From positions 1 to 58,704 of the forward strand of contig CAZPHL010000002.1 in assembly GCA_964586465.1 (NCBI GenBank): a stretch of 58,704 nt of DNA, written 5' to 3'. This document shows, piece after piece, positions 3,475 to 47,656 of the stretch. Both the position numbers and the translations under genes were made by a program. A model generated the notes under the pieces. That model was not told the DNA's origin. It made no database searches and saw nothing but the letters and a program-made list of their open reading frames with translations. Within the stretch, counting starts at the first letter, position 1; every line of letters begins with the position of its first letter. Origin of the DNA: an uncultured Sangeribacter sp. GTDB lineage: Bacteria > Bacteroidota > Bacteroidia > Bacteroidales > Muribaculaceae.

Positions 3475-6237
3475 TCAAAGCACTATCTTCACTTTATCCT
3501 TGCCGTTTGTGACAATATAAACACCTGCTGCGGCTTCTATTCTTCCGGGGCCTTTGAGAGAGTCCACTTTACGGCCGTCCACGCCATAGATATCCACGGG
3601 AACTTCGGTATAGTCAACCACAATCGCATTCTCCTCCCCATGCACTCTTAACGAGCCGGCATCACCGTCACTCCACACAGACTCAACTGCTGCCAGATCA
3701 TTTGATCCGATTACTACATAACAATTGGCCGGAACTGTGACTGTACCACCTGCTGCACTGAAAGTCGGTGTCGTGTCATACGATTTGGAAAGAATCGTAT
3801 AGGAAGAATCATCACTCTTACCAAAACTTACATTCACGGTAATTTCTTTATCCGCATTAGGATTAATCACCGTTATAAGTTCTTTTACACCTGCTTTAGA
3901 CACCATCGTGCGCCCGTTAGCCCAGTTGGCCTGAGCACAATTGTTTTCAAACGATGCACTTTCGGCAAACAGATCAGGATTAGCTGAACGTATCGCCATC
4001 AACTCCGAATAATTATCATATAATCCCTTCCTGTCAGGATTGTCGAGCAAGCTCCAGCAGACAGTCTTGGGATCGGTGTTATTGCCTCCGTCATTATTCT
4101 TTGTATTCTGCGCATTACCGAGTTCAGAGAACTGCCATATCATGTGTGCTCCGGGAGCGAGAATCATCTGTGCGGCTGCCGAACCGAGACGATGCATCGA
4201 ATTAGGCACGTTTCCTTTTACTCCCGCCACGCCCCACTGCTCCTGCTTATAGGCCAGACGCTGTTCGTCATGACTTTCGAGGTAAGAAACGGTGGAACCC
4301 CAAGTACGCTGGTCCTTGGGAGCATACATACGGTTAAGGTTGCTGTCATCCGCATATCCCATGGCAAACTGACAACCCGCTTCGTTGATATTTGCCCAGT
4401 TAAGCTGACCTGTCTCCGCCATGTCGTTCTCCTCCTGAGCGCCGGCAAGATTCTCATTTATGAAATATCCGTTTGGATTCACGCCTTCCACTACTTTCTG
4501 CAATTCTCTCATTCGGTCGATACGCGATTGATTAAAGGCATTTGTAGCCGCATCTCCGGAATTGGCGTAAGAATCATTATTACCCAGACCTTTCACAAGA
4601 TCAAAACGGAATCCGTCAAATTTATATTCGGTCATCCAATATTCAAGCACATCCTTCCACTGCTCCTGCACCATTGGAAAACCCTGATTCCAATCGTTGA
4701 GCACACTGTAAGCATGAGGAGCCTGCATATTATAGAAAGGATTATCACCGGGCATATACATCTGATACCAGGGATGCAGACCGTCGCTCTGATTGAACAC
4801 CATATCAAGAATAACAGCAATCCCGTTCTGATGACAGATGTCGATAAACTCCTTATAGTCAGCCGGACTACCGTAAGCTTTGTCAGGAGCAAAATAGAAG
4901 TTAGGATTATAGCCCCAAGATATATTTCCGTTAAACTCCATAATAGGAAGAAGTTCAACGGCATTTACACCGAGAGTCTTGAGATAAGGAATCTTCTCGA
5001 TGGCCATGCGTACGGTGCCGTTACCGTCCGCTTTTCCTTCAGTACCTGTGAAATCACGGAAAAGCAACTCATATATCATGAGCTCAGAAGGTGCAACACC
5101 TTTGAAATCCTTCACCTGCCAAGTGTAATCGTTGATATTACCTTGATATACGGCAAGAGGCACACCATCTATCTTATCGAAAGGATACTGTGGCAGATCG
5201 GGATATACGTCGGTGGAGATATACTTGTCGTTCCAGGGGTCGAGCACAAGGCGTGCATAGGGATCGCCTACCTTCTGCACACCGTCTACAAGGAAATAAT
5301 AACCATACTGCTGCGTGTTGTCAAGGCCATCAAGAGTAATCCAGAAATAACGCAGACCGTCGACATCCTGATAATTCATTACGTACTTATTGTCATAGAC
5401 ATAGTCATTCCAAGCCCCGACAATCATGACACTCTCCTTTCCGGGTGCTCCGAGACAGAATGTGACACTACCGTCATTGTTTTTTACCGGACCCATTTTT
5501 GGAGTTCCCCCGGGATAATTCTCAGCTTTCGAGTCCTCGGCAAAGGTATAACTGCGAACTGTAGTTACTGTGGCATCCCCCGCCGTGGCCACCGCCTTCA
5601 CCACATACTCGCCGGGACCCGGGAAAGTATAGTCTACCGTAAGAAGAGTCGAGTTCTTCACAGACCCGATTTCTTTGTCATTGACACTAAGGCTTATATC
5701 GGCAGACTTGGTAGCGCCCACCTTGAACGTCACATCAGCAGTAGAGGGTGTCACTAATGATCCGCTTAGACCCGACTCTAAAGCCACCTGAAGACCGGAG
5801 TCGAGCACATCGAGAAATATATCGGCATCACCCTCACCCTTTCCCTCTTTCGATTTATCACCCGTACGGAAGACGAAAGCTAGACGTGTGACATTCACCG
5901 CCGGATCTGTTATACCGTAATATTCACGGATATCACCTATATAAAGCAGCCAGAGGTTCTCACTCACATAGCTAAGCTGATATTTCTCAGAATTGTCGCC
6001 CCATTCGGGAGCGTTTACCCAATTATTACCGTCGCTCAGGCATGCACCCGTATGAGCATATACCTTCGCGGTAGCGGGCAAACCCATAAGGCCCTTATTA
6101 CCTTGATCGGCATGGAAAAATATTTTCACATCCTTGGAGTCCTCCTGAAGCGGTGACGGTTCAGACGTGACTTGGGCATACACGCCTGTAATCGTCGCCA
6201 GCAGAAAGAGCAACGTCACAATATAAGTCTTCATCAT
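3475..6237 (-). CDS. Secreted GH13 alpha-amylase/pullulanase-family enzyme with CBM48-like module and T9SS-type C-terminal domain
   Basis: Signal peptide; GH13 regions WGYNP, DMVFN, DGFRFD, INEN, ESHDE; C-terminal IYGVDGRKV...AGVYIV...KVKIVL typical of T9SS cargo. Confidence 0.88.
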   Translation of the reverse strand: MMKTYIVTLLFLLATITGVYAQVTSEPSPLQEDSKDVKIFFHADQGNKGLMGLPATAKVYAHTGACLSDGNNWVNAPEWGDNSEKYQLSYVSENLWLLYIGDIREYYGITDPAVNVTRLAFVFRTGDKSKEGKGEGDADIFLDVLDSGLQVALESGLSGSLVTPSTADVTFKVGATKSADISLSVNDKEIGSVKNSTLLTVDYTFPGPGEYVVKAVATAGDATVTTVRSYTFAEDSKAENYPGGTPKMGPVKNNDGSVTFCLGAPGKESVMIVGAWNDYVYDNKYVMNYQDVDGLRYFWITLDGLDNTQQYGYYFLVDGVQKVGDPYARLVLDPWNDKYISTDVYPDLPQYPFDKIDGVPLAVYQGNINDYTWQVKDFKGVAPSELMIYELLFRDFTGTEGKADGNGTVRMAIEKIPYLKTLGVNAVELLPIMEFNGNISWGYNPNFYFAPDKAYGSPADYKEFIDICHQNGIAVILDMVFNQSDGLHPWYQMYMPGDNPFYNMQAPHAYSVLNDWNQGFPMVQEQWKDVLEYWMTEYKFDGFRFDLVKGLGNNDSYANSGDAATNAFNQSRIDRMRELQKVVEGVNPNGYFINENLAGAQEENDMAETGQLNWANINEAGCQFAMGYADDSNLNRMYAPKDQRTWGSTVSYLESHDEQRLAYKQEQWGVAGVKGNVPNSMHRLGSAAAQMILAPGAHMIWQFSELGNAQNTKNNDGGNNTDPKTVCWSLLDNPDRKGLYDNYSELMAIRSANPDLFAESASFENNCAQANWANGRTMVSKAGVKELITVINPNADKEITVNVSFGKSDDSSYTILSKSYDTTPTFSAAGGTVTVPANCYVVIGSNDLAAVESVWSDGDAGSLRVHGEENAIVVDYTEVPVDIYGVDGRKVDSLKGPGRIEAAAGVYIVTNGKDKVKIVL

Positions 6238-12024: not shown

Positions 12025-13515
12025 TTACTGTTTGGTCAGTGTAGCTTTGTAAGGCAGAGCGGAAAGATCCAATACAATAAGATATTTTCCAGCCTCTGCA
12101 ACCTGAAGGTTAGCACCATCTAACTTCAGTTCATCCAAGGAGTCACCACCCAGGTTGATATCCCAGTTATCATTACCTCTGAACTTGAATTGACCTTCGG
12201 TAAGATTAACAGTAAGAGTCCAAGTTAAGAAGTCAGCTGAAGGATTCATGTTAGTCTGATCATCCCAACCACCGGGTGTAGCATCACCAATCACACCTAA
12301 TCCGGTAATTTCAGTAATAGTATATGTAAGGGCATCAATGTTTGCTTTACACCAGTAGAGGCCATCCGCAGGAACAGTTATGTTACCTGCATCACCAGCA
12401 GTGCTTAATGTACCCGGCTCTTCTTTTCCCTCTTCTGTTATAGGTGCTGACGCCATACCGAAATTGATACCGTCCCAACCGGCATCTGTTGTAAATTTAA
12501 ATCCACCTGTCAGATGAGCAAAACCGAAGTAGTCGCTGTAGTTATAGGTAGATAATTTTTGACAACCACTACCAAAACCCCAACCATTTGAATCACCGGG
12601 AGTATAAAGATTCTCGTATGCCAGTTGCACCTGATATGAGAGAAGCTCCATATCTACATTGAAGATGTAAGGACCGGCCACATCAATAAGACCCGGGGTT
12701 GCCTTGGAACCTTCAACATTTGCAACCAATGAACCCTCTTTTGCTTTGTCATCAGCTGTTTCCATGCCAAAACTTGCAAATTCACCGGTCAGATCACCGG
12801 AAGCCATAGCGCTTTCAGGAATTATCATCCACTCAAAACCTGCTCCGTTAACGATGACAGCCGGAGATGCGAATCTACCGTCGGCATAAACATCAGGATT
12901 TGAACCCACCCTGTGAAGTGGTATAGCCTGCTCAAGATCCCAGTTCATTTCGGAAGTAAGAAGATAATACTCCTCCTCTACAAGTCTACCGTTATAAAGA
13001 TCGAAAGGTTTAACCTCAACACCGAAGTTACCGTAATAAGTATCCACGCTACCTAAACGAACTTTCTGAAGACCTTTGACTGCCCAAATCGGGAAACGGA
13101 CATAGGACTCAGTGGTCACGGGACTCTTACCAAACAGTTCACGATAGGCAGCTTCCCATGCATCCGGAGATACAGTGACAAGACCTGCTTCGTCAGTAGC
13201 AGCCTCGATAGTCTGATATTCAGCGAAATCATCAGTTTTTGAAATCTGGATAGTAGGCACCAGAGCAGTAAAGCCTTCGGGCCAATCCTCTCCGGCAGCC
13301 ACTTTTGCTATCTCCACCAATTTGCCCTCATTGTTCAAGGCATCGAGATTGATCAACGAACTTGCTGAAGGTCCCGCCTGAGCCGTGACACTGGTGGCAG
13401 TTACAGTTGGCAGCTGAGGATTGGTCTGCGGAAGACCGGTACCCTCCTCGATATCGTCGCAAGCCGCGAAACCGAGAGCCAGCGCTGTAAGTCCATAAAT
13501 ATATAGTTTATTCAT
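12025..13515 (-). CDS. SusF/SusE-like surface glycan-binding lipoprotein
   Basis: Lipobox FAAC; SusE/F-type modules (LYTPGDSNGW, GVIGDATPGGWD, FKFRGNDNWDINLGG); downstream of susC/susD. Confidence 0.82.
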   Translation of the reverse strand: MNKLYIYGLTALALGFAACDDIEEGTGLPQTNPQLPTVTATSVTAQAGPSASSLINLDALNNEGKLVEIAKVAAGEDWPEGFTALVPTIQISKTDDFAEYQTIEAATDEAGLVTVSPDAWEAAYRELFGKSPVTTESYVRFPIWAVKGLQKVRLGSVDTYYGNFGVEVKPFDLYNGRLVEEEYYLLTSEMNWDLEQAIPLHRVGSNPDVYADGRFASPAVIVNGAGFEWMIIPESAMASGDLTGEFASFGMETADDKAKEGSLVANVEGSKATPGLIDVAGPYIFNVDMELLSYQVQLAYENLYTPGDSNGWGFGSGCQKLSTYNYSDYFGFAHLTGGFKFTTDAGWDGINFGMASAPITEEGKEEPGTLSTAGDAGNITVPADGLYWCKANIDALTYTITEITGLGVIGDATPGGWDDQTNMNPSADFLTWTLTVNLTEGQFKFRGNDNWDINLGGDSLDELKLDGANLQVAEAGKYLIVLDLSALPYKATLTKQ

Positions 13516-13562
13516 TTCGTATTGCTTATGAAAAAATTACTATTTCAGATTGAATACAATAT

Positions 13563-13612
13563 ACCGTCCGGGTAATCATATCGGGTAGCTTCCTTCAACA
13601 TACCCGGACGGT
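13563..13612. other. Intra-operon stem-loop between the susE-like and susF-like genes
   Basis: 12-bp inverted repeat ACCGTCCGGGTA (13563-13574) / TACCCGGACGGT (13601-13612); no clear T-tract. Confidence 0.6.
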
Positions 13613-13626
13613 TGTTCATACTCACT

Positions 13627-14721
13627 TTACTCCATTGTCATAGTGTAAGGTAGAGTGCTGAGATCAAGTGTGATGGTTGCGCCTCCGTTGCTATTGAGAT
13701 TATCGCCGCTGAAGGTCAGATCATCAAATGTACCACCAAGATTAATATTCCAAGCATCATTGAATGCAAACTTGAATTGACCGGTAATACTGCTACTGTC
13801 AAATGTCCACTTGAGATAATTAGAAGATGGAGTCATGTGATTAGCCGCATCAGCCTGATTCCAGTCATTGTCTTCACCAACTACCGTGATACTGCTGATA
13901 TAGGTCAGTGTATATGACAGAGTATTGATGTTGACGTCTGCATAATAAAGGCCTTCACCCTCATCAGGAAGTTGTAAGTTACCGGCTGCACCGTTTGTAT
14001 CAAGTTTACCGGCTTCTTCAGCTGCGCCGAAGTTTGTACCATCCCAGTTAGGTTGATTTGTAAACTTAAACTCACCGTTCAGGTAAACGAAGCCATGGTA
14101 TTTGCCCTCTTCGTAAGCAAGAAGCTGCTGAGAATTTTCTTGATTCCAACCATTGGAGTTACCCGGAGTATAGAGCACGTCCATCTCCACAGCCTCAGGC
14201 TGATAGTAAGTGAGCACCTGCTTCAATACGATTGTATTTGAGGTAATGGTAGTTGATGGCTGATTATTAATACTTGCTGTGGCACGAATGTAAAGCGGCA
14301 CAACAGGGATGTCCTTCTCCAGGTAGTTATCCTGATTGATATCCATAAGCTGACACATGGCCACGGCGAGATTCTTCTCGTCCATCTCTATGACAGCACT
14401 CTGAGGATTGTTTACCAACACAGAGGCATAATATGGAGCTTCTCCCTCTGCCGGCTCAGGAAGTCCTTCGCCGAAATTCTCAAGCAGAGACACTTCGATG
14501 CTGTATGCCGGTGCCAGAGCCATACCATAATTAGGCTGCGAGCAGGTCAGCTCAAGAACTGTATTAGATGTGAGCTGATACAACTGGTCTGCAAAAGGCG
14601 GAGTATTCAGCACAAACTCTGTGGCTTCAGTGAAGACAGGATCCTTGTCGGCCTGACATGAGCTGAACCCAAGTGTTGCTATTGCTGCCATTCCGCAGGC
14701 AATTATATGAATTTTATTCAT
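13627..14721 (-). CDS. SusE-like surface glycan-binding lipoprotein
   Basis: Lipobox FSSC; FVLNTP...LTCSQPNYG N-terminal domain; LYTPGNSNGW and FKFAFNDAWNINLGG modules. Confidence 0.82.
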   Translation of the reverse strand: MNKIHIIACGMAAIATLGFSSCQADKDPVFTEATEFVLNTPPFADQLYQLTSNTVLELTCSQPNYGMALAPAYSIEVSLLENFGEGLPEPAEGEAPYYASVLVNNPQSAVIEMDEKNLAVAMCQLMDINQDNYLEKDIPVVPLYIRATASINNQPSTTITSNTIVLKQVLTYYQPEAVEMDVLYTPGNSNGWNQENSQQLLAYEEGKYHGFVYLNGEFKFTNQPNWDGTNFGAAEEAGKLDTNGAAGNLQLPDEGEGLYYADVNINTLSYTLTYISSITVVGEDNDWNQADAANHMTPSSNYLKWTFDSSSITGQFKFAFNDAWNINLGGTFDDLTFSGDNLNSNGGATITLDLSTLPYTMTME

Positions 14722-14771
14722 TGTTCAGTCTAAATGAAAGTTGATTGAAAGTGTTGTTTACCTCTCTGTCA

Positions 14772-16337
14772 TTAATTGGCATCACCGGTAGAAGTGGGAT
14801 AGCCGGGGTTCTGACCTAAAGTAGCCTCAAACTGCACAGGAATAGCGTAAAGATTACGATAGCTTTCGATTGAAGCGCCGCTATAAGAACCGCCTTTCCA
14901 TTCCCACAGATAGGAAGCACCTGTAAATTTGCCGAAACGGATAAGGTCGGAACGACGGTGACCCTCCCAATAAAGCTCACACATACGCTCATTCAACAGT
15001 TCGTCAGCTGTGTAGTTGCCTACTGGAGCAAGACCGGCGCGGATACGTACTTTATTATAGTAGTCAAGACCGTTGCAAGACTGTCCGTGGAGTTCACATT
15101 CTGCGAGCATCAGATAAACGTCGGCAAGACGGAACAATGGGAAGTCAGCATTGTTGAAAGCATTTACAGCAGTGCTTGTGCCATCGGCATTGTCATAGTT
15201 GGTTTCAGGAGTGTAAACATATTTTACACACATGTAACCGCCGCCGTCACCCGTCCAGTTCTCAAGATCGGCGGGAAGAACGTTCTCATGCAGATCGCCC
15301 TCATAGATAAGACGACGCTTATCATTGGAAGCAAGAGCCTGTGAGAGGTTTGACAATACACGCGGACCGTTCCACTGGTCACCTGCACAGCCGTAAGGCA
15401 GACAGTCAACATCACTGTTGTAAGCACCTACTGAGAGATAAGTAGTGCCGCCATAGGTCTGGATTGTATTGGCATCCTGAGGTACGCCCCAGATTATCTC
15501 ACCGTTGCCTACATACTTATCATTTGTGCCGCAGAAGAGATACTTGTACTCCAGATTTGCATCCCAAGGAATTGTTGTAGCAATCTGGCTGCAGAGATCG
15601 GCACACTCTTTCCACATTGAGCGGCCTGTGTAAACCTCGGCATTGAGGTAAAGTTTAGCGAGCAGCATCTGAGCAGCCTCTTTGGAAAGACGGCCATAAA
15701 TCTGCTGAGAAGCAGGGAGCATATCAGGGATAGCATCAGCCAGATCAGCTGTCACGGCATCGAAAAGTTCCTGACGGCTGTAAGTGGGAGGAATTGAACC
15801 TACGACACTCTCCTCAGTGGTCCAGGGACCTTTGCCGAAGATATCGATGATATGATAGTAGCTCAGAGCACGCAGAGTGCGCACCTCGCTCTTGAACTGT
15901 TTGATCTCGTTTTCCGAGAAGTATTGAGCGCCACCATCGATTACCTTGAGGAATTCGTTACAGATGGCAATCTGATAATTGAAGCGGCAGTATGCTTCGT
16001 AAAGCATCGCGCAGTCAGGTCCGGCATTGGCATTTTTAACCTCCGGTATACCTGCATCTTTCCAGTTATCACCGATAATGACCTCGTCACACGGAAGCTC
16101 CTCGAGGTTCCACATCAGACGGGTGTAGACAGCACGGCCTTCGTCATTTACCGAAACACCGCCCGTAAACACCAGGCCTCCGTAAACACGCGCAAGCACT
16201 CCAAGATAGTCCTCCTTCGACGTAAGCTCGGTCTTGGTGGTGGGGTTCTCCGGGTCAACGTTGAGGTCGCCCACACAAGAGGAGAGACCAAGGGTCAACG
16301 TCAGAGCACCTATCGCTATATATTTGCTGATTTTCAT
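14772..16337 (-). CDS. susD: SusD/RagB nutrient-binding lipoprotein
   Basis: Lipobox LSSC; LRALSYY, LLAKLYLNAEVY, FRLADVYLMLAE, ERMCELYWEGHRRSDLIRFG, QNPGY. Confidence 0.93.
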   Translation of the reverse strand: MKISKYIAIGALTLTLGLSSCVGDLNVDPENPTTKTELTSKEDYLGVLARVYGGLVFTGGVSVNDEGRAVYTRLMWNLEELPCDEVIIGDNWKDAGIPEVKNANAGPDCAMLYEAYCRFNYQIAICNEFLKVIDGGAQYFSENEIKQFKSEVRTLRALSYYHIIDIFGKGPWTTEESVVGSIPPTYSRQELFDAVTADLADAIPDMLPASQQIYGRLSKEAAQMLLAKLYLNAEVYTGRSMWKECADLCSQIATTIPWDANLEYKYLFCGTNDKYVGNGEIIWGVPQDANTIQTYGGTTYLSVGAYNSDVDCLPYGCAGDQWNGPRVLSNLSQALASNDKRRLIYEGDLHENVLPADLENWTGDGGGYMCVKYVYTPETNYDNADGTSTAVNAFNNADFPLFRLADVYLMLAECELHGQSCNGLDYYNKVRIRAGLAPVGNYTADELLNERMCELYWEGHRRSDLIRFGKFTGASYLWEWKGGSYSGASIESYRNLYAIPVQFEATLGQNPGYPTSTGDAN

Positions 16338-16377
16338 ATTGAGAATCCTTGTCTGTTTAAATTGTTAATTGAAGGGT

Positions 16378-19300
16378 TTAGAACGATGCTACTACACCGA
16401 GTGTGAATGTGAATGGACGGGGATATACACCGCTGTCGATACCGCCGGCGCTCTCAGGATCCATACCTTTATATTTCGTAATTACGAAAGGATTCTGAAC
16501 CGCACCATAGAGACGGAGACGCAGACGATCGCCGAGAAGATCACGCCATGTGTAACCTACTGTGATGTTGTCGCAACGTACAAACGATGCATTCTGTACG
16601 AAATAATCTGAAAGCTTCGTAGTAGAGGTAACATCCTCGAAGATGAACGTCTTTCTCATCAGGTTAGACAAGGGGAGTGAATTGTTGGCGGCGTTATCCA
16701 CTGTGCCGGCCATATTGGAATTGTAAAGCCAGTTGCCGATGTTTGCACGTAAGGAAATACCGAAGTCCCAATCCTTATATGAGAAGTTGTTATTCCAGGT
16801 CATAGTCACCTTGGGAGCGGGGCTATGGTAGAAGTAACGGTCAGATTCATTGATAAGACCATCACCGTTGCGGTCTACGAACACACCCTCGAGAGGATTG
16901 CCGCTCTTGTCATAAACCTGCTCATAAACATAGAATGAGCTTGCTGCGTGACCGAGGGCATGCTTCTGAGCCAGAAGGTCAGTACCTACGTTACCGAAGC
17001 TTGTGTCGGCACCGTCAGAGAGTTTGGTAATCTCATTGTGGTTGTAGCCGATATTATAAGCTGTAGTCCAAGTGAAATCGTTGGTTACGACAGGACGTGC
17101 AGTAATGTTGAACTCGATACCTTTATTGACAAGGTTACCGATGTTCATATCACCCTTGTTGGTGATGTTTGAACCTGCAGGGTAAGAGGTATAGAACAGA
17201 AGGTCTTTAGTTTCACGACGATAAAGCTCGAAGCTACCGGTGATGCGGTTGTTCAAGAAACCAAAGTCGATACCACCGTTCCATGTGTGAGTCTCCTCCC
17301 ACTTGATAGCTGCGTTATATCCTTCCGGAGATACGGGGAATACCTGCTGGCCGCCGGGAAGAAGAGCCGGATAAATCGAGCCTAAGCCGGTCCACTGTGA
17401 GTAAACGGGGAGATAGGGGAAGTAGTTGTCGCCTATATCCTGCTGACCGGTCACACCGTAACCTGCGCGGAGCTTAAGTTCGCTCATGAAACCGCGGGCA
17501 CCGTCCATGAAGCTCTCCTCGAGAATCTTCCAACCTAATGCGAATGCAGGGAATGTACCCCAACGGTTATCTTTTGAGAAACGAGATGTACCGTCATAAC
17601 GTACGGTAGCAGTAAGCAGATACTTGTCGACGAATACGAAGTTCACACGACCGAAGAATGACACGAGCTGATGAGGAACGCGGAAGCGATCGGTAGGCTG
17701 AGCCTGCACACCTAAATACTGCTCGTAAGCGGGATCACCGTTCACATTGTTAACGAATGAGAAAGAACGGCCTTTGTTGAAGAATTTCTGCCAAGAGTAA
17801 CCGCCTGTTACGTCAACGTTGGTCTTGATAGCCTCGAAATACTTGTTATAGTTGAGCACGAAATCAAGAAGGAGATTGGTGCGGAGCTGATACTGGTTGG
17901 TGTACATCGTACCACCGTTCTTTACAGTCTCTGCCTTCTCGATAGAACCGTCGGCACCATAAACAGGATATTGCCAACCATTTGCCCATGCTCTCGGAGT
18001 GTTCGGATATACACCGCCCTCCCAAGTACCATGCTGATAGTCGTAAGCGAGGTTAAGGTCTGCGCTTAACTCAGGAAGGAAAGGAAGCTTGTAGTTGAGC
18101 TGGAGGTTACCGATTGACTGCCAGGATTTACCTTTGGAAGTCTGTGCCAACTGTTGTGAAATCGGGTTTACAGGAGCAGTGGCTGTATTGAGCTGAGTGC
18201 CTTTTCCGTCAGGACCGATAACTTCACCTGAAGCGTTGTAAGATGTCCAGTAGTCAAATACGGCAGCGCCGTTGGTGAAATCCCTTACAGGAATTGTCGG
18301 GTTCATGCCTGCGCAAGTGCCGAGAGTGTTGTCGGCATAAGTGTTCTCGACATAAGAACCTTTCACATTGGCATTGACTGAGAGAGTGTTGTTGAAGAAC
18401 TTAGGAGTTATGCTGATAGAAGCAGTACCACGGTTCATGCCGGTTTTCTTGATAATACCGTTGTTGTTGGTGAAAGATACAGACACACGATAAGGAAGTA
18501 CACCTGCAGTACCGCCTACACTGAGAGAGTAGTCGGAAGAAACAGTAGTGCGGGTAGCCTCTTTCTGCCAGTTGGTGTTATAATCACCAAGCTGTCCTGC
18601 CTGAGCTGAGTCGGCACCATAGCGGTTGATGATATAATTGCGGAACTCGTTTCCATCCATCACGTCCAGCAGAGTGCGCGGAGTATTCACATACATATTG
18701 GCGGTGAAAGTCACCTGTGGTTTACCGCTTGAGCCTTTCTTGGTTGTGATGATGATCACACCGTTAGAGGCGCGGCTACCATAGATCGCTGTGGCGGAGG
18801 CATCCTTAAGGATAGTCATAGATTCCACATTCTCCGGCGACACCAAAGAAAGGGGGTTGGAGGCGCCATATACACCCTTAGTGCTCATGGGCACACCGTC
18901 AATCACGATAAGAGGATCGTTAGTAGCTGAAATAGAAGCACCACCACGGATCTGGATAGAAGCTCCACCCTGGGGAGAACCGTCAGTTGTAACAACCACA
19001 CCGGGGCTTGCGCCTACGAGCAGATCCTGAGCTGAAGTAGCCAGACCGGCTTCCACTTCAGAAGGCTTCACCATGGCCACAGCACCGGTGGCGTCAGACT
19101 TCTTCACCGTACCATAACCGATGACGACAGTCTCGTTGAGCATAGTAGCATTCTCCTTCATCTCGATAGTGATCTGAGTGCGTCCGTCAACCGGCACTTC
19201 GAGAGGATCATAGCCGACGTAGCTCACCACAAGAGTGGCATTACTCGGTACAGTGAGGGTAAAGTTACCGTCTAAGTCGGCTGCTGTACCATTACTTGTA

Positions 19301-19461
19301 CCTTTCTCCATCACGGTTGCGCCAATCAGCGGCTCACCGAACTCATCAAGTACGGTTCCGTTTACCGTAATCTTCTGAGCCATGGCCGGAGGTAAGAGCA
19401 AGAGCATCATTGCTATAAAAGCCCATAACCTCCGAGTCAGATGAAAACATACGTTCTTCAT
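16378..19461 (-). CDS. susC: SusC/RagA TonB-dependent transporter
   Basis: GEPLIGATV, VVIGYG, plug PLIVIDG...LKDASATAIYGSRASNGVIIITTK, C-terminal YPRPFTFTLGVVASF. Confidence 0.95.
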   Translation of the reverse strand: MKNVCFHLTRRLWAFIAMMLLLLPPAMAQKITVNGTVLDEFGEPLIGATVMEKGTSNGTAADLDGNFTLTVPSNATLVVSYVGYDPLEVPVDGRTQITIEMKENATMLNETVVIGYGTVKKSDATGAVAMVKPSEVEAGLATSAQDLLVGASPGVVVTTDGSPQGGASIQIRGGASISATNDPLIVIDGVPMSTKGVYGASNPLSLVSPENVESMTILKDASATAIYGSRASNGVIIITTKKGSSGKPQVTFTANMYVNTPRTLLDVMDGNEFRNYIINRYGADSAQAGQLGDYNTNWQKEATRTTVSSDYSLSVGGTAGVLPYRVSVSFTNNNGIIKKTGMNRGTASISITPKFFNNTLSVNANVKGSYVENTYADNTLGTCAGMNPTIPVRDFTNGAAVFDYWTSYNASGEVIGPDGKGTQLNTATAPVNPISQQLAQTSKGKSWQSIGNLQLNYKLPFLPELSADLNLAYDYQHGTWEGGVYPNTPRAWANGWQYPVYGADGSIEKAETVKNGGTMYTNQYQLRTNLLLDFVLNYNKYFEAIKTNVDVTGGYSWQKFFNKGRSFSFVNNVNGDPAYEQYLGVQAQPTDRFRVPHQLVSFFGRVNFVFVDKYLLTATVRYDGTSRFSKDNRWGTFPAFALGWKILEESFMDGARGFMSELKLRAGYGVTGQQDIGDNYFPYLPVYSQWTGLGSIYPALLPGGQQVFPVSPEGYNAAIKWEETHTWNGGIDFGFLNNRITGSFELYRRETKDLLFYTSYPAGSNITNKGDMNIGNLVNKGIEFNITARPVVTNDFTWTTAYNIGYNHNEITKLSDGADTSFGNVGTDLLAQKHALGHAASSFYVYEQVYDKSGNPLEGVFVDRNGDGLINESDRYFYHSPAPKVTMTWNNNFSYKDWDFGISLRANIGNWLYNSNMAGTVDNAANNSLPLSNLMRKTFIFEDVTSTTKLSDYFVQNASFVRCDNITVGYTWRDLLGDRLRLRLYGAVQNPFVITKYKGMDPESAGGIDSGVYPRPFTFTLGVVASF

Positions 19462-43773: not shown

Positions 43774-43821
43774 AAAACCGACAGATTATGCTGATTGATA
43801 GGCATAGTCTGTCGGTTTTTT
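43774..43821. terminator. Bidirectional terminator between slyD and the radical SAM gene
   Basis: AAAACCGACAGATTATGCT / GGCATAGTCTGTCGGTTTT inverted repeat. Confidence 0.85.
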
Positions 43822-43837
43822 CTGCTGTATCCTTATA

Positions 43838-44902
43838 TTATTGTTTTTTCAAATGACAGTGCATCAGTTTTCCTTCCGAATCTCTGAGATGCATACCGTT
43901 ACCCTCGCAGTATCTCCAGAAAGAACAGTCGGCACATATCCCGGTCTTCATCCATTTCCGGTTGCGGTAAACTTCGAATCTGTTCTGCCACACATCCCAG
44001 AAGTCATCCTGATATATATTTCCTTGCCGATAGTCAGCCCGGATACTCGCACAGGCTCCGATACCTCCGTCAAGCAATATGGAGGCGACAGTCACACCGG
44101 CTGTGCAATCAAAGAAATGGTCTCTGATTTTCCCTTCGTATGCACCCATAAAACCTTCACAACAGAATGAAGCACGTATGCAGCCTTCATTACGGGTATC
44201 TACGATAAAACGCATCAATTCCTCTGTTTCTTCCTTCGTAAGGTCAAATTCCGGATACTGAGCAGCCCGTCCTGAGGGGAAAATTGTAAATAATCTCCAT
44301 TTTTTAACCCCGGCCTCTATCAACAACTTCTTCAGTTGATTTAATTCGGGAAGCGAACGACGGTTGACGCACGTTACCACATCAAAATTAACATCCGGCA
44401 CCGCGGCCACCATTTTTATAGCGTTATACGCCTTTTGAAATGACTGACTGTGTCCTCGCATCCAATTATGATTTCCCTCGAGCCCATCAAGACTTATGGC
44501 CATATTATGGATACCTGCCCTACGGAGACTGTCGAGCCTCTCCTTCGTCAGCAACAGGCCGTTAGTGACAATACCCCAGGGCAGCTCACGGTTATAAAGC
44601 TCCCGGCCTACATACTCCAAGTCTTTTCTCACTAACGGCTCACCCCCTGTTATAACTATATTCAGCACATGAGGATTAACGTGAGGTAGAATGGAATCCA
44701 CCACTTTAAGGAAATCCTCGGCAGGCATGTCGGGAAGCACTGACGAACTCTTACAGTCGCTTCCACAATGTCGGCAAGCGAGATTGCACCGCCATGTACA
44801 TTCCCAGAAAAGTTGCCGGAGAGGATGTTCTCTCCGGCGATCGTTTTTGAGCTTGCGGTTGAGTTCAAGGGCAAGTCGCTGTCTTAAAGATATTTTGTCC
44901 AT
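43838..44902 (-). CDS. Radical SAM/SPASM enzyme of the rSAM/lipoprotein system (TIGR04133-like, splicease-like)
   Basis: FWECTWRCNLACRHCGSDC (CxxxCxxC), TGGEP, SLDG; SPASM CTAG...GAC...CADC..WRYCEG...C; coupled by a TGATG overlap to the upstream lipoprotein. Confidence 0.88.
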   Translation of the reverse strand: MDKISLRQRLALELNRKLKNDRRREHPLRQLFWECTWRCNLACRHCGSDCKSSSVLPDMPAEDFLKVVDSILPHVNPHVLNIVITGGEPLVRKDLEYVGRELYNRELPWGIVTNGLLLTKERLDSLRRAGIHNMAISLDGLEGNHNWMRGHSQSFQKAYNAIKMVAAVPDVNFDVVTCVNRRSLPELNQLKKLLIEAGVKKWRLFTIFPSGRAAQYPEFDLTKEETEELMRFIVDTRNEGCIRASFCCEGFMGAYEGKIRDHFFDCTAGVTVASILLDGGIGACASIRADYRQGNIYQDDFWDVWQNRFEVYRNRKWMKTGICADCSFWRYCEGNGMHLRDSEGKLMHCHLKKQ

Positions 44903-45363
44903 CAGTCTTTATTATCTGCCGGTTTTAACACGAAATCAACCGTAGCCTCGGCTGTCCCTACGTACCAAAAGTTGTCATGGTGAGTCTTATCCTTTACGTA
45001 ATTCAACTCCACTACTGTGGAGTCGGCGCTCAGCTCAGGATCATCAGGAATACATACGATTTTCAGAGTGGTGATGACAACCTTTCCATCCTCTTCTACA
45101 ATATAGGCTCCGGCGGCGTCTGTTTCAGTGGCAGCTATCGGATAGAGACTTGAATCGTAGTCGGGCCACGCTGCTATTATACTTGCTCCGCTCACTGCCT
45201 TACCCGCCTCATCAGTGACAGTCCCCTTGATTTCCCAATCCCCTGTAGGCGTACCATACATCGTCAAGAGTTCATCAGGATGATCGGAAGAACAACCGAA
45301 TCCTAAAATACCCATACATAAGGCACACAAACGCGAGATGGCAGCAGTTATGTTAATTCTCAT
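44902..45363 (-). CDS. Radical SAM-associated lipoprotein (TIGR04134-like) with MYGTP motif
   Basis: Lipobox LGFGC, then MYGTP and an IKGTVTD...TDAAGAY beta-sandwich. ATG at 45363 preferred over TTG at 45390. Confidence 0.82.
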   Translation of the reverse strand: MRINITAAISRLCALCMGILGFGCSSDHPDELLTMYGTPTGDWEIKGTVTDEAGKAVSGASIIAAWPDYDSSLYPIAATETDAAGAYIVEEDGKVVITTLKIVCIPDDPELSADSTVVELNYVKDKTHHDNFWYVGTAEATVDFVLKPADNKD

Positions 45364-45375
45364 AAACAGATTATT

Positions 45376-45421
45376 AATTATTATCCTCAACCTTGATCAA
45401 TTATTATCCTCAGCCTTGACC
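45376..45421. repeat. 23-bp tandem duplication
   Basis: AATTATTATCCTCAACCTTGATC (45376-45398) and AATTATTATCCTCAGCCTTGACC (45399-45421), 21 of 23 identical. Confidence 0.85.
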
Positions 45422-45672
45422 ATCAGCGAATCGGGCTCTAAAGAAGGATCGTCAGCTGCCATACTTTTAATTTCATAAGTACTGCTGACAGTGCCATACA
45501 TTAACACTATTCGGTCATCATCGGGATTATCCGGGTTATCAGGCTCATCGGGCTCAGTGGAACAGCCGTAGCCCAATAATGACATCATAGCAACACATAA
45601 GTATGAAAGAAGCGATGACAACGATAACTTCCGTTTGGTTCCGTTTCCGGTCTTCATATAAATTTTGCCCAT
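45397..45672 (-). CDS. Short lipoprotein/lipopeptide precursor with MYGT motif
   Basis: Lipobox LGYGC, PDE-PDN-PDN-PDD spacer, LMYGTV...YEIK paralleling TMYGTP...WEIK of the neighbouring gene. Confidence 0.75.
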   Translation of the reverse strand: MGKIYMKTGNGTKRKLSLSSLLSYLCVAMMSLLGYGCSTEPDEPDNPDNPDDDRIVLMYGTVSSTYEIKSMAADDPSLEPDSLMVKAEDNN

Positions 45673-45741
45673 ACTACTTGGTATATTAATTTTAAGCTTA
45701 ACTGATTAATCTGATGCAAATATAATCAATTCTTATCTTAT

Positions 45742-45770
45742 AGATATTCAATATCTGAAAATACTGCATG
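45742..45770 (-). promoter_or_regulatory. Putative ECF promoter of the lipoprotein-lipoprotein-rSAM operon
   Basis: CATGCAGTATTT-N12-TATCT, same motif and spacing as upstream of the sigma fusion. A TATATTTG primary-sigma element is also present at 45724-45717. Confidence 0.75.
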
Positions 45771-45819
45771 AGGTCATAAAAAAACTTACATCCCTGAACC
45801 AACAATGATACCATTTGTC

Positions 45820-47499
45820 TTAGAAGTTGAAGCGGAAACCTATGGGAAGAGAGAAACCCCATTGATTGTCACTCCATGCATTCGGCACTGTGTAATCATG
45901 TTTGAAATGATACTGCAACGTCGGCTCCAAAAAGATATCAATCCTATTGCTGAGTTTAATCCCTATACCATATCCTACAAACATTGACCAGACAACCGGT
46001 GAATTAAATCTGCCACCTTCTAAATAAGAAGCGTATGGCGAATCGCTCACAACGGCTTTTGAATATAAAGGAATGTCAATCGAGCCTCCTACACAGGCAT
46101 ACAGTTTTACCCTTTGGTAAGAGAAGGATCGGATATTTATTTTAACCGGTATACCGAGATAATGCCAATAACAGTCACTCTTGGAAGAATAGGTCTCAAA
46201 AGTGGAATGTAAATAAGTGTAAGTCAATCCGGATTCCACACTAAAAGTCTTATTCAACGTTTTCGATACAGAAGCAGAAAACGACACAGGTAAAGAATTA
46301 GTATGGGGTACAGAAGCATAATTCGAATACACGCTGTTTCGTGAGCGAGCGGAAGGTATTGATGATTTCTTATCTTTATCTATCCCATCAGTATCCGGAT
46401 TTGTAGGCTTATTAGGTTTATCACACGGGCCGTTAAAATCGACAGAAGGAGGAGTTTCAGGATTAGCACCATACATTAAATCATCCTTTGAGCCATTCCC
46501 TAACTTAAGGAAACCCGGATCAGCACTCAATCTTAATGACCATAAACTTGAAGAGACTTTAACTTCATTAATTTCCGGCATTGACTCCACATTATCGCTA
46601 TAGGCATAAAGAGGCGGCTCGGTCACACCAACTTCTACTTGATCTGACTCTTTAACCTCTTTAAGACTGTTTTCATGGTTGTCAGGAGTTGAGACAGAAG
46701 TCTCTGAAACTTCCGTCACATTATCAGGATCGGTATTTCCTGAACCTTTAGATACTTTACCCGTACCAGAAGATTCTTTATCTGTATTACCCACTTCACT
46801 CTTTTTAATACCTTCTGCTATAACAATCGGTGCAGCTTGCGTCAGTGAGATGCTCTTTCGTTCAACGGTCAGAAGTTCCGCAGAAGGATTATTGCTTTGG
46901 ATATTACGCCATATCACCAAACCTCCAATAATTCCTAACAGTAGTATACTCCAGACTCCGGTCTGCTTTTTATATTCAGTTATGAGTTTCCTCATCATCA
47001 GTTTGGCATGAAATAACTGTGAAGAGGATGAATTAGGAGCTATACCCAGTAGTTTGGCTATCTCCTTATGCGATTTATTCTCTAAGACAGCAAGACGGAA
47101 AACCTTCTGATAGCCTGCCGGAAGACGTGTGATCAAAGTTTCAAGTGTCTCCAGATCAATTATATCCTCAATCTGTGGGGTGTCCTCGACATCGGGAATA
47201 TCATGAAGTATCTGGGTGACATCCTGAGCCTGCAGGAAGTGCAACGACAGATTCTTCATGATGGAGGCAAGCCAATAGTCAACTTTTCCGGCATCGCGTA
47301 AAGAAGACAGTCGTGTGAAGGCTACGATAAACCCGTCATGCAGAATGTCTTCCGCATCTTTTTGATCATTTACATAACGGCGTATCACACTGAGCATACG
47401 GGGTGCAAAACGGAGATAAAAAAGATTTAAGGCTTCCTTATCTCCCTTTCTGCACTCCTCAACCAAAGTGTGATTATCTATTTCTAACTGTGAGTTCAC
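45820..47499 (-). CDS. ECF sigma factor fused to a TM helix, long linker and C-terminal outer-membrane beta-barrel
   Basis: aa 1-178 sigma (DAEDILHDGFI; LPAGYQKVFRL...SHKEIAKLLGIAPNSSSSQL); TM aa 181-197; S/T/E/K-rich linker; barrel strands VESGLTYTYL, HYLGIPVKI, IFLEPTLQYHF; terminal IGFRFNF. One uninterrupted ORF with a GTG start. Confidence 0.85.
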   Translation of the reverse strand: MNSQLEIDNHTLVEECRKGDKEALNLFYLRFAPRMLSVIRRYVNDQKDAEDILHDGFIVAFTRLSSLRDAGKVDYWLASIMKNLSLHFLQAQDVTQILHDIPDVEDTPQIEDIIDLETLETLITRLPAGYQKVFRLAVLENKSHKEIAKLLGIAPNSSSSQLFHAKLMMRKLITEYKKQTGVWSILLLGIIGGLVIWRNIQSNNPSAELLTVERKSISLTQAAPIVIAEGIKKSEVGNTDKESSGTGKVSKGSGNTDPDNVTEVSETSVSTPDNHENSLKEVKESDQVEVGVTEPPLYAYSDNVESMPEINEVKVSSSLWSLRLSADPGFLKLGNGSKDDLMYGANPETPPSVDFNGPCDKPNKPTNPDTDGIDKDKKSSIPSARSRNSVYSNYASVPHTNSLPVSFSASVSKTLNKTFSVESGLTYTYLHSTFETYSSKSDCYWHYLGIPVKINIRSFSYQRVKLYACVGGSIDIPLYSKAVVSDSPYASYLEGGRFNSPVVWSMFVGYGIGIKLSNRIDIFLEPTLQYHFKHDYTVPNAWSDNQWGFSLPIGFRFNF

Positions 47500-47506
47500 T
47501 ATTTAA

Positions 47507-47535
47507 AGATAGGCCTCAACCCCAAATACTGCATG
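47507..47535 (-). promoter_or_regulatory. Putative autoregulatory ECF promoter, probably giving a leaderless mRNA
   Basis: CATGCAGTATTT-N12-TATCT ending 7 nt before the GTG start codon. Confidence 0.75.
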
Positions 47536-47577
47536 GCCTGTTGAAAAAAAACATCATGACAGTATAAAAATCGAGAT

Positions 47578-47629
47578 AAAAAATGAAGTTGCAATATGCA
47601 AGGACATTCCCATAACATAATGCAACTCC
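47578..47629 (-). terminator. Probable terminator after mltD
   Basis: Minus strand GGAGTTGCA...TGCAACTTC followed by ATTTTTT. Confidence 0.55.
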
Positions 47630-47656
47630 AATGTTCTGCAAAAAAAGCTCTGAATT

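Follow-up and report, generated by a model that had tools for sequence, protein, structure and literature searches.

The window examined here is a stretch of 58,704 nucleotides from an uncultured Sangeribacter sp. (Muribaculaceae, order Bacteroidales; contig CAZPHL010000002.1), part of a 2.4 Mb assembly that is 69% complete. Between mltD and an FKBP gene, it carries four minus-strand open reading frames (ORFs) in series, encoding a sigma factor fused to a predicted outer-membrane barrel, two lipoproteins and a radical S-adenosylmethionine (SAM)/SPASM enzyme (Table 1). Both halves of this module are of known kinds; what is new is the link between a Dma3-type fusion, a promoter motif and a lipoprotein–enzyme pair of families TIGR04134 and TIGR04133. 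The original prediction, made from the letters of the window, had described four co-oriented, terminator-bounded genes between housekeeping genes, and this layout was confirmed. The hairpin after mltD is predicted to insulate the module on its upstream side. The hairpin at the other end has arms at 43774–43791 and 43802–43819, T-runs on both strands and folding energies of −29.2 and −22.8 kcal/mol.

Table 1 Features of the module in the Sangeribacter window, in the direction of transcription
Feature	Positions	Strand	Basis or remark
Terminator-like hairpin after mltD	47579..47635	-	Inverted repeat I9; −22.0 kcal/mol, then T-run
Promoter-like site P1	47507..47551	-	Matrix score 37.6 bits
Dma3-type sigma-barrel fusion, 559 aa	45820..47499	-	Pfam, NCBIfam, AlphaFold2, Foldseek
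Met-Tyr-Gly (MYG) in fusion barrel loop 1 (residue 342)	46468..46476	-	Likely chance
Promoter-like site P2, ahead of the lipoprotein–radical SAM genes	45742..45784	-	Matrix score 37.0 bits
Lipoprotein 1, 91 aa	45397..45672	-	TIGR04134 12.8 bits, under the cut-off of 39.8
23-nt tandem repeat at the lipoprotein 1/2 junction, overlapping the lipoprotein 1 stop	45373..45418	.	Repeat family D9; blastn
Lipoprotein 2, 153 aa, TIGR04134	44902..45363	-	70.4 bits against a cut-off of 39.8; length counted from the ATG (the ORF finder instead opens the ORF at TTG 45390)
Radical SAM/SPASM enzyme, 354 aa, TIGR04133	43838..44902	-	564.5 bits against a cut-off of 425
Bidirectional terminator-like hairpin, common to the convergent FKBP gene	43774..43819	.	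Inverted repeat I5; folds; terminator scan

The sigma-barrel fusion and its promoter motif

The N-terminus of the fusion matches PF04542 (residues 28–93) and PF08281 (117–167) and passes the TIGR02937 cut-off. The protein is laid out as an extracytoplasmic function (ECF) sigma domain with regions 2 and 4 (about residues 9–180), a hydrophobic helix (about 180–202, with the hydropathy peak at 180–200), a disordered linker (203–316) and a predicted eight-stranded outer-membrane barrel (320–558). An AlphaFold2 model built on 31 homologues is confident for the sigma domain, extends the helix to residue 202 and gives predicted local distance difference test (pLDDT) values under 50 for residues 203–316; a strand at 320–327 is followed by a long acidic disordered loop 1 (about 331–395) and then by the remaining barrel. 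Foldseek matched the fusion to sigmaE and OmpA, and the barrel profile PF13568 scored 21, below its cut-off of 27. The architecture is that of Dma3 (BT_2778) of Bacteroides thetaiotaomicron, a described regulator whose deletion gave no visible phenotype (PMC10927553): sigma domain, single helix, disordered linker and barrel are all present, the last three as predictions. No RseP over cut-off was found in the 69%-complete assembly, from which we draw no conclusion, and no full-length fusion was found in the plasmid collection.

A two-part motif with ECF-type spacing, consisting of a T-tract, ATGCAGTA, 15 nt and TATCT, precedes both the fusion gene and lipoprotein 1. In P1 the −35-like ATGCAGTA lies at 47534–47527 and the −10-like TATCT at 47511–47507, and the GTG start of the fusion follows 7 nt past TATCT; the corresponding elements of P2 lie at 45769–45762 and 45746–45742. 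The T-tract with ATGCAGTA occurs only twice in the whole assembly, at these two places. Of 48 candidate sites from other genomes, 40 were used to build a matrix, the window and eight sites whose second element was not at the fixed distance being left out. P1 and P2 are the two best matches of this matrix genome-wide, the next scoring 21.1 bits, and three shuffled genomes gave no site of 19 bits or more. The common promoter motif of the original prediction is thereby upheld, in fact as a two-part one. For a wider regulon we found no third site above 21.1 bits in the 69%-complete assembly.

Comparative evidence was drawn from three collections: 69 loci found through their similarity to the enzyme, an evenly drawn sample of 251 Muribaculaceae genomes (the family sample), and 301 genomes across the order, 67 of which pass the TIGR04133 cut-off. 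The last yielded 75 other over-cut-off loci, with several kb of flank where contigs allowed. In relatives the motif mostly precedes the fusion and again its next gene, regardless of what that gene encodes. With four duplicate loci removed, we then counted sites of at least 15 bits in the 2.6 kb ahead of the enzyme gene. Such a site is present in 19 of 20 fusion loci, a count that is partly circular as most of the 20 supplied training sites (the window, L002, L015 and L193 were held out); at the sole miss, L001, the spacer is one base shorter. By the same count, a site is present in none of 4 loci with a split regulator (separate sigma and barrel genes), in 6 of the 65 remaining loci that lack a fusion and in none of the 74 order-wide loci. 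Five of the six motif-bearing loci without a fusion were looked up, and four of these five assemblies encode a fusion elsewhere. One of these four, L035, may be a contig break, and L003 retains the mltD context without the fusion.

Promoter copies thus track the fusion, which lends comparative support to the earlier proposal that the fused sigma domain regulates the operon; from this distribution, the sigma domain very probably controls both P1 and P2. The alternative is that the fusion is a co-inserted neighbour, with another factor reading the motif and the lipoprotein operon lying outside its control. That most TIGR04133 operons have no fusion nearby, and that the assembly encodes 15 further sigma-like ORFs, fits such an arrangement. 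It is countered by the ECF-type spacing of the motif, by its place ahead of the fusion and the next gene whatever the cargo, by its absence from all 74 order-wide loci and by the fusions found elsewhere in the four assemblies mentioned above, and we regard it as very unlikely.

Two-part motifs ahead of ECF genes mark autoregulation. An in-frame start lies 8–9 nt beyond the ATC in all 18 loci checked, and the fusion mRNA is therefore likely to be leaderless and autoregulated from P1. In 11 of 17 loci (L001, L005, L012, L023, L027, L029, L030, L032, L036, L037 and L067) an out-of-frame ATG-TGA or GTG-TGA overlaps the fusion start by two bases, which may be a by-product of the start context. Several split sigma and barrel pairs outside the family (within L217–L238; for example L218, L221, L222 and L237) have a related motif, TGCAGTA with CATTT or TATTT as second element.

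The lipoproteins, the enzyme and the Tyr-Gly site

Lipoprotein 2 has its lipobox cysteine at residue 24, MYGTP at residues 35–39 and a CarboxypepD_reg-like domain (weak PF13620 match); Y36 and G37 are invariant across 48 aligned relatives. Lipoprotein 1 (lipobox Cys37, an acidic repeat stretch and MYG at 58–60) is a truncated homologue from which most of the beta-sandwich is missing, and its homology is confined to the surroundings of the lipobox and MYG. Acidic residues after the lipobox cysteine favour surface exposure. The enzyme is encoded next to a lipoprotein gene, its CxxxCxxC cysteines (39, 43 and 46) and SPASM cysteines are invariant across 48 relatives, and its closest relatives are 71–84% identical. 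The families named in the original prediction, TIGR04133 and TIGR04134, were thus recovered for the enzyme and lipoprotein 2 but not, at cut-off, for lipoprotein 1. No solved close relative was found for the lipoprotein (best E 0.013) or the enzyme (best E 9e-14).

A Tyr-Gly (YG) lies within the first 125 residues of 162 of the 166 lipoprotein-like ORFs neighbouring the enzyme, a count with some circularity, lipoprotein 2 having seeded the profile; the control, tested over a shorter stretch of 30 residues, gave 2 of 111 lipoprotein-like ORFs of the window genome. Across relatives YG lies a median of 8 residues past the lipobox cysteine (+12 and +22 in the window lipoproteins) and is usually followed by xP, and the residue before it is M in 76, E in 32 and C in 26 of 150 parsed sequences. 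Of 33 enzyme loci without a TIGR04134-like profile match, 28 have a YG-bearing ORF alongside; some of these are chance, and in many cases the ORF encodes a short unrelated peptide in which YGP or YGV recurs. YG also persists in forms of 50–90 aa without the folded domain. It is therefore no structural element of that fold, and the comparison supports YG as the target site of the enzyme.

Three variations on this pattern were seen. In the 26 parsed lipoproteins with Cys before YG (order-wide loci L149, L153–L174 and others), that residue is the lipobox cysteine itself where read (ACYGTP), and splicing would there hit the lipid-bearing residue. At L124, L127, L133, L137 and L147 the relatives have a signal-peptidase-I-like end, AQYG, and the mature protein would begin with X, here Gln. 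Another TIGR04133 group within the Muribaculaceae (L202–L214, L150, L152) adjoins unrelated peptides with repeated VYGPP or MYGPR, some without a signal peptide.

The original prediction had likened the enzyme to PlpX-type spliceases, which excise tyramine at XYG motifs. We take entry IPR026482 to be TIGR04103. PlpX is assigned to IPR026482 (PMC11002830) and was represented in our trees by a Nostoc TIGR04103 member. For splicease and spliceotide chemistry we follow PMC11414181, PMC9811515 and PMC11626197; the published rule is a variable X and an invariant YG (PMC11414181). In a 31-row tree, TIGR04133 joins the TIGR04103 member, TIGR03913-type enzymes and two unnamed radical SAM proteins with support of 100/99. 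Approximately unbiased (AU) tests on an 18-row tree, from which 12 TIGR04133 rows and one long-branch row were left out, reject placement with Ahb-like enzymes (p 0.005) and with MftC (p 0.003). The PlpX-type kinship held up in this check. Since trees place it with splicease families and YG is retained in 162 of 166 neighbouring ORFs, the enzyme likely excises tyramine at the MYG sites of the lipoproteins.

Several points weigh against this assignment. Hidden Markov model (HMM) scores do not single out spliceases: the enzyme scores 117 against TIGR04103 (cut-off 725), 105 against TIGR03913 (cut-off 592), and is assigned to neither, and 126 against AhbD. We relied on trees because these scores fail to separate a splicease from an AhbD affinity, and in the 31-row tree itself just 13 rows lie outside TIGR04133, whose stem is long. 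The module has no Y gene, and hhalign gave no likeness (probability 0.1) between the lipoprotein N-terminus and the one PlpY-like ORF compared. Lipoprotein 1, for its part, may be a decaying copy. A predicted complex of the enzyme with lipoprotein 2 scored 0.25, against a mark of 0.32, and was used as evidence neither way.

The enzyme might instead act at the conserved YG by other radical chemistry, such as an aryl cross-link or modification of the Gly C-alpha, with no ketoamide formed. Its low splicease-family scores and the missing Y protein and leader likeness fit this, as does a SPASM region that reads CEGNG, one cysteine short of the PlpX-family CRGGC motif. Set against these, the trees and AU tests place the enzyme with YG spliceases, and the variable-X, invariant-YG pattern fits the published rule, such that we consider other chemistry improbable. 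Tyramine excision at YG, our preferred assignment, may already have been covered for TIGR04133 by Scott et al. 2022, for instance among the types III–V that are known to exist (PMC11414181): as reported in PMC10849128, that study identified YG-rich PlpX-like enzymes across 189 genera, with 27 pairs confirmed.

The MYG that had been noted as common to the fusion and the lipoproteins stands for both lipoproteins (from residues 58 and 35) but is not conserved in the fusion. It has been considered that the enzyme also splices the sensor's own surface loop, as feedback, and residue 342 does lie in the predicted disordered loop 1. Of 120 homologues, 2 carry MYG within that loop and 10 carry any YG, the latter below the roughly 20% expected from composition, and MYG is missing at that position from all 20 barrel homologues of enzyme loci. 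On these counts the fusion MYG is a chance occurrence; it was rejected as an enzyme substrate, and splicing of the sensor appears extremely improbable.

Distribution of the module and cargo of related fusions

Of the 69 enzyme-similar loci, 17 are accompanied by a fusion, which in one case is cut down to the barrel, and three by a split sigma and barrel. The family sample contains the enzyme in 31 of 251 genomes, at 34 loci, five of which, including the window, adjoin a fusion. None of the 75 order-wide loci has a fusion beside the enzyme and one, L110, has a split pair. The fusion–enzyme link belongs to one Muribaculaceae subclade. The co-occurrence anticipated by the original prediction thus holds within this subclade but not order-wide; an order-wide conserved four-gene module was rejected, and these counts point to a lineage-specific pairing of two older parts.

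The junction between mltD and the FKBP gene (43774–47635; also in L002, L003, L004 and L326) resembles an insertion site. At L003 it holds the lipoprotein–enzyme pair and one promoter copy, the fusion possibly having been lost between two copies; at L326 it holds a distant fusion in the opposite orientation. Elsewhere, the window carries ordinary starch utilisation genes, a SusC/SusD/SusE-F locus at 12025–19461 and an alpha-amylase gene at 3475–6237.

The genes behind the fusions, their cargo, were surveyed for the 51 fusions of the family sample (50 fetched, plus that of the window). A serpin follows in 10 and the lipoprotein–enzyme pair in 5; the remaining 36 precede a class I methyltransferase (9), a CotH kinase (9), another radical SAM enzyme with an oxidoreductase (7), YfhO (2), MBOAT (2) or nothing clear (7). 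Serpins occur in 87 of the 251 family genomes, at about 169 loci, and by our own arithmetic the chance of one within 3 kb behind a given gene is about 0.0004; the serpin count is overstated, because kin are not independent. In a 64-row fusion tree, the 18 fusions linked to the lipoprotein–enzyme pair form a clade with a Shimodaira–Hasegawa-like approximate likelihood ratio test (SH-aLRT) support of 100, in which one serpin-linked fusion of the same genus is nested (19 members). The enclosing clade (support 99) has 30 members: 18 linked to the pair, 7 to serpins and 5 to other genes. The serpin label requires at least three changes on this tree. At L020, L024 and L063, genes for serpin, sigma factor, barrel, lipoprotein and enzyme lie in one closely packed string.

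A C10 cysteine protease with an I69 inhibitor domain is encoded behind the fusion at L183 (3372–4832, before a serpin) and at L008 (3502–4830, before lipoprotein–enzyme genes). At L284, L285, L287, L289, L296, L303 and L309 the fusion is followed by a different radical SAM/SPASM gene and a Gfo/Idh/MocA oxidoreductase, sometimes with a CotH kinase lipoprotein; the one radical SAM/SPASM protein of this set that was tested had no NCBIfam match at 1e-40.

Serpins in sister loci, one of them nested, and the three split sensors with both a serpin and the pair favour protease defence as the role of the lipoproteins. That role had been proposed in the original prediction and is supported by these loci, though not by the 36 fusions with other cargo, which imply that Dma3 is not a dedicated protease sensor. 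Under the same regulation and splicing, the output could alternatively be general envelope remodelling, the ketoamide being a reactive handle by which the protein is cross-linked or anchored to amines of the envelope, and the sensor responding to generic outer-membrane stress. The 36 fusions suit this alternative, as do two findings in B. thetaiotaomicron: the dma3 locus is up in hypervesiculating dma1 and dma2 mutants (in one mutant comparison BT_2778/2779 had log2 fold changes of 2.3 and 2.7, a rise of about 5- to 7-fold), and broth cultures show constitutive expression of the lipoprotein (baseMean about 2460) (PMC13088901). It accords poorly with the enclosing clade, where 25 of 30 members carry a serpin or the lipoprotein–enzyme pair, and with a second, split regulator that independently shares an operon with serpin and pair. 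We consider general remodelling possible, though unlikely.

Proposed mechanism and comparison with known systems

Taken as a whole, the best explanation is that a Dma3-type sensor switches on spliced, ketoamide-bearing, protease-inhibiting surface lipoproteins, and we judge the odds for and against it to be even. Dma1 spans both membranes and yields C-terminal fragments (PMC10927553); by analogy, the fusion would probably span both membranes too, and proteolysis after outer-surface damage would free its sigma domain. Judging by the motif distribution, the freed sigma factor would then, with high probability, drive P1, in a positive feedback that is likely leaderless, and P2. Phylogeny and YG co-occurrence make it fairly likely that the cytoplasmic enzyme would modify the pre-lipoprotein before Sec export and lipidation, leaving alpha-keto-beta-Met. 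Spliceotides that carry a ketoamide inhibit proteases, an activity missing from unspliced controls (PMC11626197). From this activity and the serpin-bearing sister loci, there is perhaps an equal chance either way that the lipid-anchored ketoamide would trap Ser or Cys proteases at the cell surface. The trigger is the weakest step: of the candidates, a protease that cleaves the long surface loop ranks highest, and we propose it tentatively. The joint claim, that the fusion serves as bait whose loop a gut protease clips, that the freed sigma factor amplifies itself and arms the surface with ketoamide lipoproteins, and that serpins and these lipoproteins are evolutionarily interchangeable outputs of one sensor and promoter, is doubtful in its entirety.

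Besides the narrow distribution of the fusion–enzyme link, the cargo of the other fusions and the non-independence of the serpin loci, two published observations tell against this explanation. The B. thetaiotaomicron lipoprotein–enzyme pair BT_0510/0511 was expressed but stayed flat where the dma3 locus rose (log2 fold changes of 0.04 and −0.16; PMC13088901), and the related Reo is treated as a general outer-membrane stress sensor (PMC13114119), which speaks against a dedicated protease role. The earlier interpretation overall is partly supported.

Its combined architecture had been put forward as possibly uncharacterised. The fusion layout was already known as Dma3, but open-licence literature yielded no link from Dma3 to the TIGR04134/TIGR04133 pair, serpins or the promoter motif. 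Nor was anything found there on a splicease with a lipoprotein, tyramine excision in Bacteroid lipoproteins or a ketoamide in Bacteroidetes, or on a serpin with an ECF or anti-sigma factor, or an EcfO promoter consensus. Among the matches listed, TIGR04133 was unnamed, and those for Muribaculaceae with serpin included none relevant by title or start of abstract.

The role of Dma3 was left open by two papers, in one of which it is stated as still undetermined (PMC13088901); the present analysis adds a survey of cargo, a defined promoter motif and an autoregulatory start that is likely leaderless. B. thetaiotaomicron has both Dma3 and a TIGR04133/TIGR04134 pair, which makes direct testing possible. 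Native spliceotide products remain elusive according to a review (PMC9811515), and with a defined inducing sigma factor such a product could be turned on in the organism that makes it. That serpins take the place of the pair behind sister fusions is evidence from genomes, not resting on the chemistry, for the lipoproteins as protease inhibitors, a reading relevant to the way in which an abundant family of gut bacteria withstands host proteases.

Compared by layout rather than by sequence, the fusion resembles Dma3 in its sigma domain fused N-terminally to helix, disordered linker and barrel. Furthermore, a class I methyltransferase follows 9 of the 51 surveyed fusions, and BT_2778 is likewise followed by BT_2779, which is listed as one (PMC13088901). 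It differs in its TIGR04134/TIGR04133 cargo and in having a defined promoter motif, the literature passages available giving no promoter or regulon for Dma3. Dma1/Das1 and Reo/EcfO share the trans-envelope topology, the proteolytic fragments and the induction of surface lipoproteins (NigD), but consist of two polypeptides, an ECF21 sigma factor and a separate dual-membrane anti-sigma factor; the split regulators beside lipoprotein–enzyme operons lack the window motif (0 of 4). The window enzyme and lipoprotein 2 are members of the TIGR04133/TIGR04134 system by score, yet that system is catalogued as hypothetical equivalogs and usually has no dedicated adjacent regulator.

With PlpX/PlpY (type I) and RhaX/RcsX/RasX (type II, without a Y protein) the enzyme shares the radical SAM/SPASM architecture, XYG precursors and a sister position in trees, and the two-component layout is that of type II. 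In contrast to those systems, the window substrate is a lipoprotein in which a signal peptide replaces the Nif11-type leader, and the product would stay lipid-anchored. Finally, Bacteroidota serpin lipoproteins (PF00079) occupy the same slot behind sister fusions and are likewise protease inhibitors with an export signal, whereas inhibition by the window lipoproteins would come from a post-translationally installed warhead rather than a conformational trap.

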